IMG/VR virus record: IMGVR_UViG_2721755586_000001
Coordinates: 24,063 to 88,062 of that record
From: a virus
DNA: 64,000 bases
Strand: one strand, 5' to 3'
The notes beneath the pieces were generated by a model that did no database searches, was not told the origin of the DNA, and saw nothing but the letters and a program-made list of their open reading frames with translations. Of the stretch, positions 23,382 through 61,809 are shown piece after piece (positions within the stretch are counted from its first letter, which is position 1; each line of letters begins with the position of its first letter). Position numbers and translations under genes: made by a program.

Positions 23382-24488
23382 TTATTCTGGTGTGATTTCG
23401 AAATTTTCATCTCGGATTAAGCCGATTTGATGTTCCATGCCCTCAGCAACTCCAGCACCTAGTTCCAAATCAAAACGAGTGATTTCAGTACCAGTGACCA
23501 CATCATTACCTGTCATAGTTGAGATTCCGCCTTTTTGGAACACTTGCAGTGGTGATTTAGCACCTTGAGGAATGAAGAAGAGGAGGCCTTCTGGAAGATA
23601 AGTTTTGAAGTTGTCCTTAGCTTTATTTAGCTCTGTCAGATTGTAGCTGTTTGGAAGCTCGACAATAGAAGATCCTTTGTATGTACTCAGTAAACCAGTT
23701 TTTCTGATCTCATCCATAACTGACTCAGGCAATTTTGTGCTTGAAGCATCTCCAGCCACAGCTTGGAATCCTGCGAAATCATTTAACTGCGAAACAACTG
23801 AATAGTCTCCCACAATTGAAGGTTGTCCAAATCTGCGAATCTTCTTAATCGTGTCATCCACAGCACTCTTAGCAATACCAGGGCTTTCAGAGAAATATTT
23901 TACGCCTTTAGCCTTTTTGATAGCATTAAACATTTCATTTACTACGTAATACATCGCCTTATTCATCATGTCGATTTGAACTTGATCCATGCCTTCAGCG
24001 ACCTTGTCGAGATTACCACTCATAATTTCACGGTAGTTTACTGCGTAACCGGATGAAATGGTTTGAGTAGCAATCGGGTATTCTCTCCAAGTTGTAGTTG
24101 CGAATGGAACATCACCACGAGAAGCTTGAAAACCACTTCTAATCGACTCATGTGCATATGTCGTCATCATAGGCTGTTCATCATAGCCGATTGGTTTAAA
24201 ATTGCCCATGAAATCGAACAATTTTAAAGCTGAAATTAACTTAGGTTCAATTGCAAACCTTACAATTTGATTGATTTCAGCTTTAGCAACTGGATTGCCA
24301 GCCAGAGCTTGGTCTCCTAAATTTTTGACGTGCTTCATAGCAGCGTCGACTTTAGCGCCGTTGAATTTAGACAAGTCCTTACCAGTTGCCACCGCAGAAA
24401 AGATTTCTACGAGTGGGGACTTAGTGTTTAACTTAGAATGTGTAAATACATCAGAATCACGTCTTGCGTTGTTTAATTCAATTTTCAT
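23382..24488 (-). CDS. yonB: Major capsid protein (YonB position)
   Basis: 368 aa, strong RBS; follows scaffold and decoration genes; called from size and synteny. Confidence 0.7.
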   Translation of the reverse strand: MKIELNNARRDSDVFTHSKLNTKSPLVEIFSAVATGKDLSKFNGAKVDAAMKHVKNLGDQALAGNPVAKAEINQIVRFAIEPKLISALKLFDFMGNFKPIGYDEQPMMTTYAHESIRSGFQASRGDVPFATTTWREYPIATQTISSGYAVNYREIMSGNLDKVAEGMDQVQIDMMNKAMYYVVNEMFNAIKKAKGVKYFSESPGIAKSAVDDTIKKIRRFGQPSIVGDYSVVSQLNDFAGFQAVAGDASSTKLPESVMDEIRKTGLLSTYKGSSIVELPNSYNLTELNKAKDNFKTYLPEGLLFFIPQGAKSPLQVFQKGGISTMTGNDVVTGTEITRFDLELGAGVAEGMEHQIGLIRDENFEITPE

Positions 24489-47945: not shown

Positions 47946-48509
47946 ATGAACATTTTAATATTTTTTGTTGCTGTTCTTGTGTTTAATTTCATATATAACT
48001 ACTATAAATATTTAAGTTGCAAAAAATATATTGAATGGTATGAAAAGTGGTGCGTATATCCTGATTTTGATGTGAATTTGGTTGAACACAAATCAGTTGT
48101 AAAATCACTTGTTGAAAATGCTGGAATAAAAAATACTAAAATTCCATATGAGCAGATGGGAATAAGCTCTAAACAGTATATGCTTATTGATTTTCTTGAT
48201 CAATTTCCAGCGAGAGAAAAAAGTATCGCCTTTCCCATCTTGAGAGCAATAGCTGAAGCAAAAGGTGTATATAAAAAAAGAATGGGCTCTTCATATAATC
48301 CATTAGCATGGATTGAATTCGCCATATATTTTCCAAGTAAGATTTTAAAATTTATTGGATCTAGAGAAGAAAGTGCAATTTCAAAAATCCTCAATTTTGT
48401 GTGGTGGATAGTTGGGGTTATTATTATTCCAATTCTAATTGCTACTTATACATCAGAATTAAGCATCTTTATAAGAAGCGTTTTCGAAAAAATCTCTGAA
48501 TTTTATTAA
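47946..48509 (+). CDS. Membrane protein (N- and C-terminal TM segments)
   Basis: 187 aa; hydrophobic N-terminus and FVWWIVGVIIIPILIATY segment; RBS AAGGGG. Confidence 0.7.
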   Translation: MNILIFFVAVLVFNFIYNYYKYLSCKKYIEWYEKWCVYPDFDVNLVEHKSVVKSLVENAGIKNTKIPYEQMGISSKQYMLIDFLDQFPAREKSIAFPILRAIAEAKGVYKKRMGSSYNPLAWIEFAIYFPSKILKFIGSREESAISKILNFVWWIVGVIIIPILIATYTSELSIFIRSVFEKISEFY

Positions 48510-48563
48510 ATTTAAAAGCAAAAAACAGATAAAAGAAGTATTTCATTTAGAAGGTGATTAAAC

Positions 48564-48596
48564 ATGATTATTGAAGCAATTAAAGTTGGAGGTTAA
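48564..48596 (+). CDS. Mini-ORF, peptide MIIEAIKVGG
   Basis: RBS AAGGTGA 6 nt upstream; ATG ATT ATT GAA GCA ATT AAA GTT GGA GGT TAA. Confidence 0.6.
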   Translation: MIIEAIKVGG

Positions 48597-48616
48597 GGGT
48601 TATAGGAGGTGAGATT

Positions 48617-48643
48617 ATGGCTGATATTCGCCCAGGAGGATAA
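48617..48643 (+). CDS. Mini-ORF, peptide MADIRPGG
   Basis: Near-perfect RBS AGGAGGTGA 4 nt upstream; ATG GCT GAT ATT CGC CCA GGA GGA TAA; followed directly by a terminator. Confidence 0.7.
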   Translation: MADIRPGG

Positions 48644-48669
48644 GAGGGGAGGGATTAAACCCTCTTTTT
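48642..48669 (+). terminator. Intrinsic terminator after the mini-ORFs
   Basis: GAGGG-ATTAAA-CCCTC (extendable to AAGAGGG/CCCTCTT) plus T-run. Confidence 0.7.
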
Positions 48670-48819
48670 CATTCCGCATTTGGCGCATTTACGTATGAAT
48701 TCACCTTTTGATATAGTGGACTTAAATTGAGCTGTATCACAATTGTCGCATCGTCCACTATTCTTATCAGGGTGTTCTCGTATGTCGTAGATCTTTTCTA
48801 AATCAATTTCTTTCAACAT
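48655..48819 (-). CDS. Small zinc-ribbon protein (54 aa, not in track)
   Basis: RBS AAGGAG; MLKEIDLEKIYDIREHPDKNSGRCDNCDTAQFKSTISKGEFIRKCAKCGMKKRV has CxxC...CxxC. Confidence 0.75.
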   Translation of the reverse strand: MLKEIDLEKIYDIREHPDKNSGRCDNCDTAQFKSTISKGEFIRKCAKCGMKKRV

Positions 48820-48970: not shown

Positions 48971-50128
48971 ATGAATCTTAAAACATACATAAAAAATAAA
49001 TGTGAAAATGATTCTTCTTTGGCTATGAAATTAGCTAAGATAGCGGGCTATTCGGATAGAACTGGCCTTTACAAATTTTTAAATAGCTCTAACAAAGAAA
49101 TGGATGACTTGAGCAATCTTATAAATTTAGTTAGAGAAGTTGATCAAGAAAGAGAAATTGAAATAATTAGCACCTATATCACAACACTCGACCCTAACAA
49201 GTCGGCTGCGAGACAAGCTGTAGAATATTTAGATGCTAATCAACTTGGTGAAGAAACAGATGAACTTGTTGTTAAATTATGCAACGCCAGCAACGCATTA
49301 AGCAAAGAGTGGGGGAATGTATATCGCATACATAGAATGCTCACAAAAGGTGAAATTGATTTAACATCTGCTATCAAAGAAACTGGCACTATAAAAATTA
49401 AGAGTGAAGAAATGTTTGTATTTGCAAGGATGATGACATTATATGAATACCTAAACTCAGGTGAGTTTGGTCTAATGAAGAGTACATCAGCATATATTGA
49501 TCTTTCTAATTTAAAAAAGGGGTATGTTAAAGACTCTTTTAGTTCAAGGTATTTGCTGCTTATGGCCAACGTGTTTTTAAATGACAACAATTTAAAGCCC
49601 CTCAGAGACTACTGTGATCAGATTATAACTGAAGATGTTAAGGTGAATCGGTTTCAAGTGTTTGCTCATCTGACCTGCGGAAATTCTTATGTATTTGATG
49701 ATTATAAGAAAGCAAAAACATACTACATCAACGGTTTGAAATTCGCTAAAAATAGTTTTCATAAATACAAACTTACATCAGCTTTGGCATTTTTAGAAAA
49801 CATTTGGGAAGTAAGAGAAAATAAATATCTCGAACAGGAACCTAAAAATGATTCTGATTATATAGAACTTGCACATCACTTTATGCTTAATGATCAGACA
49901 GATAAAATGATGGATGTGTTCAATAAATTAGATTCAACTACTATGCATGACAATGATTTAGGGTTCCTGTACTACGTTAAAGGTATATTCTATAAAGATA
50001 AAGGCTGTTTCTTGAAATCAGTTAAACATTTCAAGAAATCAGATGATAAATATTTTATTAAACTGCCTTTAATTAAATTAAAGAATATGGGCATAGAAAA
50101 TGAAATTTTAGAACTTTTGGCTATTTGA
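48971..50128 (+). CDS. aimR: Arbitrium receptor AimR (RRNPP family, HTH + TPR)
   Basis: 385 aa; N-terminal KLAKIAGYSDRTGLYKFLN HTH, LDPNKSAARQAVEY and TPR-like helices; followed by aimP; TTGACA promoter at 48921. Confidence 0.92.
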   Translation: MNLKTYIKNKCENDSSLAMKLAKIAGYSDRTGLYKFLNSSNKEMDDLSNLINLVREVDQEREIEIISTYITTLDPNKSAARQAVEYLDANQLGEETDELVVKLCNASNALSKEWGNVYRIHRMLTKGEIDLTSAIKETGTIKIKSEEMFVFARMMTLYEYLNSGEFGLMKSTSAYIDLSNLKKGYVKDSFSSRYLLLMANVFLNDNNLKPLRDYCDQIITEDVKVNRFQVFAHLTCGNSYVFDDYKKAKTYYINGLKFAKNSFHKYKLTSALAFLENIWEVRENKYLEQEPKNDSDYIELAHHFMLNDQTDKMMDVFNKLDSTTMHDNDLGFLYYVKGIFYKDKGCFLKSVKHFKKSDDKYFIKLPLIKLKNMGIENEILELLAI

Positions 50129-50156: not shown

Positions 50157-50282
50157 ATGAAGAAATTAGTTATGGCTTTAGTTTTAGTTGCAGCGGTAGC
50201 AGGCGTATTCTCTGGCACACAGCAATCAATTGCTATGGATGCTGAAAAAGTGTCAACATCATCTGCTTCTAGAGGAGCTTAG
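50157..50282 (+). CDS. aimP: Arbitrium pro-peptide AimP, predicted mature peptide SASRGA (not in track)
   Basis: RBS AAAGGAGGTG; MKKLVMALVLVAAVAGVFSGTQQSIAMDAEKVSTSSASRGA = signal peptide plus C-terminal xxxRGA as in SPbeta/phi3T. Confidence 0.93.
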   Translation: MKKLVMALVLVAAVAGVFSGTQQSIAMDAEKVSTSSASRGA

Positions 50283-50297
50283 TAATCGTTTGTAGTT

Positions 50298-50324
50298 AAG
50301 GGATAGAAATATCCCCTTTTTCTT
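50298..50324 (+). terminator. Terminator after aimP
   Basis: GGGATA-GAAA-TATCCC plus T-rich tail. Confidence 0.8.
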
Positions 50325-50415
50325 GAAATTTTAAGAATGACAATATATAATCTAATGAATAATAGTGGTACATAATATGACGTATAACCCTTTAGGGGTT
50401 TGCGTCATTTTGTAT
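50323..50415 (+). promoter_or_regulatory. Promoter plus short terminated transcript at the aimX position
   Basis: TTGAAA-N17-TATAAT (50323-50351); hairpin ATGACG...AACCC-TTTA-GGGGTT...CGTCAT (50377-50408) plus T-run. Confidence 0.55.
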
Positions 50416-50502
50416 TTTTAAGACAATATGCCAATTTTTCCGAAATTGAATAATGATCTTACAAAAGCACATTGAAAATGTGCTATTTGTCGTGAAAAAA
50501 GC

Positions 50503-50531
50503 TTTACATATAAGTTTTTATCCATTAAACT
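50503..50531 (+). promoter_or_regulatory. Probable promoter of the sro (yopM-yopR) operon
   Basis: TTTACA-N17-TAAACT upstream of the RBS AGGAGG at ~50562. Confidence 0.55.
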
Positions 50532-61277: not shown

Positions 61278-61433
61278 ATGAACAATATGAAGAAATTGAT
61301 TAAAGAAAACGTTAAATTGAAAATGAAGCTGGCAGCTAACGAAGAAGCAATTTTGAAAGAGAAGGAAAAAATGAGAAACAACAAATTGATTAAAATCATG
61401 ATGAATGATCGACATGCAGGTTTAACAGTTTAG
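61278..61433 (+). CDS. Small basic coiled-coil protein (51 aa, not in track)
   Basis: RBS GAGGGAG; MNNMKKLIKENVKLKMKLAANEEAILKEKEKMRNNKLIKIMMNDRHAGLTV. Confidence 0.55.
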   Translation: MNNMKKLIKENVKLKMKLAANEEAILKEKEKMRNNKLIKIMMNDRHAGLTV

Positions 61434-61494
61434 ATGAAATCGTGATTTTAAGGAGAATGTCGCTTTTGATAAATAAAATTAAGGAGATGAGAAA

Positions 61495-61809
61495 ATGAAT
61501 ACATATGTTGTCACCGAGGAAACAGAAGGATGGCGTTACTTAGATGAAATAATAAAACAAACTATTTATGCGGGCTCAGATAAGCAATCTGCATTTGATT
61601 GCAACGTTTATACTAAAAAAAGTAGGCTTATATTAGATGTCTGGTTTAATGGACGTTTGGTTAAATCATTTAGTAGATCTTTTGAAAAAGAGTGGACATT
61701 GTTCTTTGATCAGTTAGCAATAACAAAACATGAAATTGAGGACTATAGTGAAAAATTAAGTAAAGCGCAAGATACTTTGAGATTAATCGAAGGCGCTCAA
61801 AAAATTTAA
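61495..61809 (+). CDS. Hypothetical protein
   Basis: 104 aa, RBS AAGGAG. Confidence 0.65.
   Translation: MNTYVVTEETEGWRYLDEIIKQTIYAGSDKQSAFDCNVYTKKSRLILDVWFNGRLVKSFSRSFEKEWTLFFDQLAITKHEIEDYSEKLSKAQDTLRLIEGAQKI

Follow-up and report, generated by a model that had tools for sequence, protein, structure and literature searches.

The window analyzed here, a stretch of 64,000 nucleotides (positions 24,063 to 88,062 of IMG/VR record IMGVR_UViG_2721755586_000001), is part of a 135-kb SPbeta-like Bacillus provirus. Arbitrium, the model case of virus-virus communication, is represented in it by a receptor gene, aimR, and a signal precursor gene, aimP. Upstream of this pair lie two mini open reading frames (mini-ORFs) whose products, MIIEAIKVGG and MADIRPGG, end in the exact C-terminal peptides of AimP signals from another arbitrium clade, that of phage Wbeta. 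The mini-ORFs are probably translated leaderless minigenes that encode a rival's mature pheromone; inside the cell it would occupy the rival's AimR, tipping that phage towards lysogeny or dormancy. On balance, we also favor a broader view in which SPbeta-like phages carry an unrecognized class of weapon: orphan leaderless minigenes that forge a rival's pheromone privately, whose design emerged or was reshuffled on three or more occasions (represented by the window type, a cassette in phi3T and a fused gene in genome G040), and that could be tested in phi3T. The locus has the following parts.

48529..48558, plus strand: conserved leader block, starting ATAAAAGAAGTATTT and ending in the Shine-Dalgarno sequence (SD) of mini-ORF1 (from an alignment of 15 distinct loci)
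48550-48558, plus strand: SD of mini-ORF1, GAAGGTGAT
48564..48596, plus strand: mini-ORF1, ATG at 48564 to TAA at 48596, product MIIEAIKVGG
48604-48612, plus strand: SD of mini-ORF2, AGGAGGTGA, a perfect 9-nt match to the B. subtilis consensus within an otherwise variable spacer of 15-20 nt
48617..48643, plus strand: mini-ORF2, ATG at 48617 to TAA at 48643, product MADIRPGG
48644..48669, plus strand: hairpin and U-run, fold -14.9 kcal/mol, which ends the plus-strand transcription unit

The original prediction, made from the letters alone, had read two consecutive ORFs of 10 and 8 codons here, each with a ribosome-binding site, followed by a terminator about 300 bp before aimR. Both are in the sequence, each ORF with its SD, and the hairpin and U-run lie ~300 bp from the aimR start at 48971; this hairpin was absent from the output of a consensus scan and was seen by folding. 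It had also held that the mini-ORFs lack a signal peptide and are unlike the phage's own AimP, which ends in SASRGA, and this stands as well: upstream extension is barred by in-frame stops at 48555-48557 and 48581-48583. A canonical AimP has a signal peptide and pro-region in a precursor of ~37-60 amino acids, is encoded adjacent to or overlapping its cognate aimR, and has as its C terminus the mature pheromone of an AimR receptor. The mini-ORFs have the last of these traits (ADIRPGG, AIKVGG, EIKVGG), but they comprise 10 and 8 codons and sit upstream of a clade-2 aimR. Because the signal peptide and the adjacency to a cognate receptor both fail and the pheromone sequence alone is present, we place the locus outside the AimP gene family and class it as an orphan leaderless pheromone minigene, a variant of arbitrium signaling.

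To find natural counterparts, AimR-family genes were scanned in 49 Bacillus species genomes and the small ORFs beside them were read. The C terminus of mini-ORF1, AIKVGG (EIKVGG in two relatives), is identical to a natural AimP ending at 6 of 6 residues. Mini-ORF2 is Met followed by ADIRPGG, the last seven residues of the AimP of phage vB_BauS_KLEB27-1 (7 of 7 identical). The natural precursors are distributed as follows.

Precursor ending SAIKVGG: genome G019 and five viral contigs (L137-L141)
Precursor ending SEIKVGG or AEIKVGG: genomes G014 and G032 and three viral contigs (L142-L144)
Precursor ending YKTADIRPGG: phage vB_BauS_KLEB27-1 and five viral contigs (L175-L179)

These precursors are canonical, with a signal peptide and an aimP that overlaps the 3' end of the receptor gene, as annotated in J5a. 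Their receptors, 385-436 amino acids long, match PF22871 in the N-terminal half only and are 31% identical to the Wbeta/J5a AimR; on this sequence comparison the KLEB27-1-like receptors belong to the Wbeta clade. The elements themselves are 60-70 kb prophages with their own family-A DNA polymerase, primase and DnaB helicase. EIKPGG is the functional pheromone of Wbeta and TIKPGG that of J5a (PMC8878798). The original prediction had named EIKPGG as the mature AimP of a B. thuringiensis phage; the clade was right, and the phage was not, being Wbeta, of the B. anthracis/cereus group. Comparison with catalogued AimP peptides, which it had proposed as a check, returned the exact matches given above. 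A hexapeptide drawn at random would coincide with one of the 30 catalogued arbitrium hexapeptides with a probability of ~9e-7; for both mini-ORFs the figure is ~8e-13.

The identity between mini-ORFs and natural aimP genes exists at the protein level only: they use different synonymous codons, and the DNA on either side is not related. This bears on the idea that the mini-ORFs are inert relics, aimP 3' ends captured by recombination from KLEB27-1-like phages. SPbeta-like recombination is heavy at the locus, where the upstream gene changes in nearly every relative, and to that extent capture would be in keeping with the setting. Shared flanking DNA is missing, however, both peptides come with a dedicated strong SD and a start codon just 5' of the mature sequence, the ORFs show purifying selection (below), and two further architectures hold the same or analogous peptides; we regard relics as highly improbable. 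The chances are next to nil for a second alternative, in which the di-glycine C termini imitate ubiquitin-like proteins, as the original prediction had offered, or else CD-NTase tails, and so block defenses of the E1/E2 type. The GG ending, and nothing else, fits it. GG is the usual ending in the Wbeta-like clade (11 of 14 catalogued C-terminal 7-mers, with one artefact set aside), the residues before GG are the conserved and pheromone-identical part, and no E1/E2 context was seen. Products of 8-10 residues also have no beta-grasp domain or long E1-recognized tail, and the suggestion was not borne out.

A different set of signals had been considered as the mimicked model. AimP endings of phi105/phi106-like prophages in the Bacillus species genomes include EIKVGM, DVKVGM, EVRVGM and DVRPGM. 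These clade-1 peptides (EVRVGM, EIKVGM, DVRPGM, DPPVGM) share the [DE][IV][KR][VP]G core, and their hosts, with the mini-ORF peptides, but their last residue is M or A and never G, they match at 4-5 of 6 positions, and their Arg codon family is different. EIKVGM and DVRPGM were demoted to a secondary target once the exact GG-ending Wbeta-like matches had been found; when viral contigs were screened by pattern for GG-terminated precursors of the clade-1 style, the only matches were chance ones in amidase genes. Clade-1 receptors are possible secondary targets and offer the best match available for MEVRVGG, a peptide of the phi3T cassette described below. One peptide of this group, DPPVGM, blocks induction (bioRxiv 10.1101/2021.09.20.460909).

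One genome alone does not put the mini-ORFs above chance: mini-ORFs of 4-14 codons preceded by an SD match of at least 6 nt number 145 in the 135-kb provirus and ~126 in shuffled versions. Relatives were therefore gathered through the neighboring proteins, AimR and a DUF8096 protein, and not through the peptides. Three viral contigs, two species genomes (one of them B. pumilus) and 12 assembly or metagenome contigs gave 15 distinct sequences; a DNA search of a phage collection with the 600-bp region returned no match. Both mini-ORFs are present in all 15. The variants of mini-ORF1 are MIIEAIKVGG, MNLEAIKVGG, MIVEAIKVGG, (TTG)IIGEIKVGG and MSLDEIKVGG; IKVGG is invariant, with five synonymous and two stop-codon changes across the 15 loci. 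For mini-ORF2, 13 loci encode MADIRPGG and one each MTDIRPGG and MADIRPGV; across its full length there are six synonymous and two replacement changes. Of the 13 minimal changes in the terminal 13 codons (IKVGG-stop plus DIRPGG-stop), 12 are silent, compared with a neutral expectation of 26.5% (p = 1.2e-6). Variable sites fall at 7 of 11 third positions and at 1 of 22 first and second positions (Fisher p = 5e-4). Stops swap among TAA, TGA and TAG, starts between ATG and TTG, and all four Gly codons are in use. The spacer between the mini-ORFs varies, with indels, and its SD core alone is constant.

An antisense ORF that shares the wobble positions of mini-ORF2 was ruled out, as frameshifting indels in the terminator region of relatives break that frame. 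Given the variation at third positions, the broken antisense frame and the lack of a significant RNA fold or family, selection acts on the peptides, mostly on the C-terminal 6-7 residues. The codon-level comparison thus indicates that both mini-ORFs are under amino-acid-level purifying selection in the 15 relatives. Amino-acid-level conservation, with synonymous changes, is what the original prediction had named as a check, and it was found.

The same data bear on whether the locus acts in cis or as RNA, with the mini-ORFs as leader peptides for the terminator or for the DUF8096 gene, or as an SD- and GGA-rich sponge of ribosomes or CsrA, and with the pheromone resemblance a coincidence. Only 0-9 nt separate the stop codon of mini-ORF2 from the hairpin, whose 5' arm would be covered by a ribosome terminating there; the region has several GGAGG motifs; and in the phi3T cassette one ORF supplies, with its Gly-Gly codons, the SD of the next. 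Nevertheless, synonymous changes destroy GGA motifs while Gly-Gly is kept (one relative, L014, has GGT GGG), and the codons upstream of GG are conserved at the amino acid level only, which is not the pattern of a structured or sponge small RNA. The region folds no more stably than shuffled sequence (z = +0.23), and an Rfam search with it found no matching family. As for a leader peptide or upstream ORF, the hairpin follows directly, the next gene is convergent, and no downstream gene belongs to the mini-ORF transcription unit. With exact pheromone identity by chance at ~1e-12, we hold such a role to be very unlikely. Codon-level conservation and exact pheromone identity contradict this reading, as they do the relic and ubiquitin-like ones.

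The mini-ORFs are also independent of the signal that the phage itself uses. The pherotypes encoded downstream in the relatives are SASRGA, AIGNGG and DPGRGG, and the mini-ORFs are constant across all three. The 135-kb provirus holds no second AimR-family gene; its own aimR is the sole match at E values up to 1. The original prediction had proposed intracellular mimics of the signals of other clades, directed at the AimR or Rap receptors of competitors. For AimR the proposal gains support, at the level of sequence, from the exact identity, the lack of a same-clade receptor and the lack of co-variation with the phage's own pherotype. For Rap, no evidence was found; no rap gene adjoins the locus, and no comparison with B. 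pumilus Phr peptides was made.

Two further, independent loci have the same or analogous peptides in other architectures. The first came from a loose pattern scan of SPbeta and phi3T.

L123:1400-1560 (phi3T, KY030782.1, ~89180-89330): phi3T cassette, unannotated, between a yorC-like gene and phi3T_133
L223:1430-1570 (G040:C19, ~61400-61550): fused gene MKDIRPGGNRERAIKVGG, 18 codons, autonomous, with a TATAAT promoter, SD and terminator

In the phi3T cassette, an extended -10 promoter (TGATATAAT) is accompanied by a short leader hairpin, a pair of conserved minigenes and a terminator. The minigenes read GTG-INIIGG-stop and ATG-EVRVGG-stop, and the Gly-Gly codons of the first form the SD of the second; a third mini-ORF upstream is not conserved. 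At a query coverage of at least 80%, the cassette is kept in 20 B. subtilis SPbeta-like phage records, including BUCT082/083, Goe11-14 and SPbetaL2-L8; SPbeta, SPR and SPbetaL1 lack it. Seven aligned cassettes differ solely by synonymous changes in both ORFs. INIIGG is identical at 5 of 6 positions to INAIGG, the AimP ending of the B. subtilis phages phi18-2 and 268TH002/007 and of several viral contigs, and the INAIGG systems of phi18-2 and 268TH002/007 belong to the same Wbeta-like clade; no natural INIIGG precursor was found in the 49 Bacillus genomes. The nearest natural peptides to EVRVGG are EVRVGM, of phi105-like phages, and ELRPGG. The cassette is the B. subtilis counterpart of the window mini-ORFs. 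The fused gene, in a B. pumilus-group genome (G040), contains both window peptides in one ORF, in reversed order, and adjoins copZ/csoR/copA; the resident Wbeta-like system of that genome has a different pherotype, DPIPGG.

Forger and presumptive target share hosts. Relatives with the mini-ORFs occur in B. pumilus and B. altitudinis records, and KLEB27-1 infects B. australimaris, a member of the B. pumilus group. By sdhA, the genomes with natural AIKVGG or EIKVGG (G014, G019, G032) and those with the mini-ORFs (G001, G021) form one B. pumilus-group cluster at 87-100% identity. Indeed, IMG genome 2524614764 carries a SEIKVGG prophage (L143) and a mini-ORF prophage (L004) together. As regards the secondary target, a clade-1 phi105-like system is present in 9 of 19 B. 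pumilus-group genomes, and B. pumilus genome G021 holds a phi105-like prophage and a mini-ORF prophage. Sample accessions of EIKVGM-type AimPs showed no overlap with the NCBI/Logan assemblies that contain the mini-ORFs.

It is established that peptide-free AimR activates a lysis-promoting output (Erez 2017; Stokar-Avihail 2019, as cited), and peptide-bound AimR does not, so that lysogeny is favored and induction blocked (Erez 2017 and Stokar-Avihail 2019, as cited; Aframian preprint, bioRxiv 10.1101/2021.09.20.460909). In the mechanism we propose, each translated minigene would supply little beyond the mature pheromone of temperate phages like KLEB27-1 and phi18-2, which inhabit the B. pumilus and B. 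subtilis groups. With no signal sequence, the peptides would arise in the cytoplasm, bypassing secretion, extracellular processing and re-import by Opp. There they would bind and fill the AimR of an entering or resident KLEB27-1-like phage as agonists, mimicking a saturated signal of its own; the lysis-promoting output of the rival would shut off, and the rival would become lysogenic or be kept dormant. The forger would gain in fitness twice, its host not being lysed by the rival and its own induction not being shared with a co-induced competitor in the same cell. Methionine aminopeptidase removes Met before Ala. Because Ala follows Met in mini-ORF2, the enzyme is expected to leave ADIRPGG; the mini-ORF1 product would require trimming at its N terminus or tolerance of the extension by the receptor.

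Published crosstalk lends the proposed outcome a precedent. When the signal of a lysogen cross-talks with a superinfecting phage, lysogeny of that phage rises about tenfold and the resident benefits (bioRxiv 10.1101/2025.10.13.681967), and crosstalk changes induction in mixed lysogens (PMC13220667).

Several observations weigh against the proposal. One relative (L029) encodes MADIRPGV, and in 91 Bacillaceae genomes MEVRVGG has no exact natural counterpart. Co-residence with a target prophage is seen in one genome only, and in a small sample of 19 B. pumilus-group species genomes the two elements never occur together. Mini-ORFs of the window type have no visible promoter of their own. B. subtilis uncouples transcription from translation, which speaks against a cis-regulatory role and is no proof of a role in trans. 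Finally, the products carry 1-4 N-terminal residues beyond the hexapeptide (M-A-, MII-E-), and EIKPGG without its first residue is inactive, so the N terminus matters (PMC8878798).

These extra residues are also the starting point for the possibility that the peptides are antagonists or N-terminally extended weak ligands, with which the rival's AimR would stay active and the rival would be forced into lysis or induction, evicting a resident competitor. The specificity of arbitrium peptides is set by the N terminus (PMC8878798), and MEVRVGG differs from the phi105-like EVRVGM in the last residue only. Wherever a natural counterpart is known, however, the core is identical and not altered, which fits an agonist; lysis by a co-resident rival would kill the forger's own cell; and the published fitness benefit has the opposite direction. 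We consider antagonism quite unlikely.

The same forgeries might instead act outside the cell, exported as leaderless peptides by a PptAB/EcsAB-type ABC exporter and taken up again through Opp, misleading rivals in neighboring cells as a public signal. SHP, a leaderless RRNPP pheromone, is exported by PptAB in streptococci and provides the precedent; the exact identities to natural signals would be the same, and natural crosstalk runs through the medium. Yet the mini-ORFs have no export signal and no linked transporter gene, their 7-10 residues are far below the length of known leaderless pheromone precursors, and a peptide already encoded in mature form could reach a cytoplasmic receptor with no export at all. 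Extracellular action is in our estimate unlikely, and we prefer action within the producing cell.

The mini-ORFs resemble known systems in part. Their products share the C-terminal hexa- or heptapeptide with Wbeta-clade AimPs (EIKPGG of Wbeta, TIKPGG of J5a, ADIRPGG of KLEB27-1, INAIGG of phi18-2, and AIKVGG and EIKVGG of prophages). A natural Wbeta-clade AimP, however, is a protein of 37-47 amino acids with a signal peptide, whose gene overlaps the 3' end of its own aimR, whereas the mini-ORFs are leaderless, have 8-10 codons and reside in an unrelated phage with no such receptor. In arbitrium crosstalk the peptide of one phage loads the AimR of another, much as proposed here (Gallego-del-Sol et al. 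2026, PMC13220667; Manley et al. 2025, bioRxiv 10.1101/2025.10.13.681967); it favors lysogeny, lowers induction of the receiver and benefits the emitter (same sources). Known crosstalk is, however, a by-product of a phage's own secreted AimP on similar clade-2 receptors, whereas the mini-ORFs are dedicated extra genes for the signal of another clade that do not serve the phage's own receptor and have no export signal. Both papers are confined to secreted cognate AimPs, the Cell paper to clade 2, and neither PMC13220667 nor bioRxiv 10.1101/2025.10.13.681967 mentions orphan, leaderless, decoy or mimic peptides.

Among other very small genes, the precursors of SHP and XIP (streptococcal Rgg/ComR) have 17-25 amino acids and are exported, processed and serve their own adjacent receptor, and the lambda bar minigenes have 2 codons and act via peptidyl-tRNA drop-off and not via the peptide. 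The mini-ORFs are like both in being very small ORFs whose products would act with no Sec signal, and like bar in being phage minigenes with a strong SD; they are unlike SHP/XIP in export and receptor, and unlike bar in length and in the drop-off mechanism. In the literature searched, we found no description of leaderless minigenes for a rival's signal; DIRPGG, EIKVGG and EVRVGG had no match, and AIKVGG and INIIGG appeared only in unrelated papers (on human immunodeficiency virus protease, plant genomics and linguistics).

The first demonstrations of inter-phage crosstalk date from 2025-2026 and were limited to one clade and to side effects of a signal that a phage secretes for its own use. 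If the proposal is right, genes dedicated to the signal of another family, expressed intracellularly and with no receptor of their own to serve, would mean that phages evolve deception as a weapon, and would provide a concrete selective force behind the fast diversification of pherotypes. It would also imply a class of inter-phage conflict or anti-phage genes too small for annotation pipelines (7-18 codons), and that functional genes of bacterial viruses may be little beyond a start codon and a hexapeptide. Since phi3T and many SPbeta-like laboratory phages of B. subtilis carry an analogous cassette, existing strains, peptides and reporters would suffice for a test.

The genes around the mini-ORFs are as follows.

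47946..48509, plus strand: gene for a 187-amino-acid predicted membrane protein, no Pfam match, last ordinary gene of a long upstream operon
48655..48819, minus strand: gene for a 54-amino-acid zinc-ribbon protein (DUF8096), homologue of phi3T_82, convergent on the hairpin
48971..50128, plus strand: aimR, the phage's own clade-2 receptor (PF22871, E = 6e-80)
50157..50282, plus strand: aimP, the phage's own signal precursor, with a signal peptide, ending in SASRGA

Homology among the relatives begins abruptly at the leader block in the alignment, and the first 15 nt of the block also lie 5' of the equivalent terminator in SPbeta, where the mini-ORFs are absent. The gene 5' of the block changes in nearly every locus (PIN_12, RES-domain, membrane and unrelated ORFs); the 187-amino-acid gene is variable cargo, with relatives carrying another gene there. 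As no hairpin separates the two, mini-ORF1 would be co-transcribed with it, and a variable cargo operon that ends in the mini-ORFs, with RES-domain, PIN_12 and membrane proteins in relatives, fits a conflict locus. The hairpin at 48644-48669 is kept in all relatives in the alignment, with a 5' arm of varying length, and its loop contains the stop codon of the convergent DUF8096 gene. In phages of the window type this gene always adjoins the mini-ORFs, an adjacency with no functional link shown; the homologous loci of SPbeta and phi3T have no mini-ORFs. In those two phages the DUF8096 gene lies between yopD and yopE and is mostly unannotated. Homologues at 50-59% identity occur in KLEB27-1, 268TH002/007, Bacillus phage 250 and even a Microcystis phage record.

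SASRGA is a known clade-2 pheromone (bioRxiv 10.1101/2025.10.13.681967; PMC13220667). The 3' side of aimP has a terminator-like hairpin at 50300-50315 and a promoter close to consensus at 50323-50351 (11 of 12 matches); an Rfam match to RsaF at 50400-50510 is weak and sub-threshold (E = 0.018). Positions 50300-50510 are probably the aimX region. Further downstream are a YopP-like recombinase gene, a YopQ-like gene and a gene for an MrpR/YopR-like repressor. Two non-SPbeta clade-2 arbitrium elements (L039 and L055, in G003 and G024) have a conserved ORF of 18-19 codons with an SD, MRSYVLILEPKEIEFSDSG or MRSYVLCELKEILYSDSG, 60-120 bp upstream of aimR.

In KLEB27-1 itself (L136, 34886 onward; also L135), an RNA polymerase sigma-factor gene directly follows aimR/aimP, and this sigma factor may be the lysis-promoting output that AimR controls in that clade. 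Reciprocal mimics (xxxRGA or xxxRGG minigenes) were looked for in KLEB27-1, phi18-2 and a phi105-like record; their number equalled that in controls, and the matches fall inside coding regions. That phi105-like group has features of its own. In L064 (KY197768.1, labelled phage phi105), the AimR is 59% identical to the B. pumilus phi105-like AimR and the AimP ends in EVRVGM; a 2025 preprint lists Phi105 as having no arbitrium, and the KY197768.1 record has one annotated feature. In the phi106-type systems L041, L056 and L057 (from G004, G045 and G012), DPPVGM is internal and is followed by 21-32 further residues. Prophages of the phi105-like type with clade-1 arbitrium lie ~7-8 kb from sdhA in seven B. 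pumilus-group genomes (L062; G002, G020, G021, G026, G036, G048 and G049), which points to a common attachment site.

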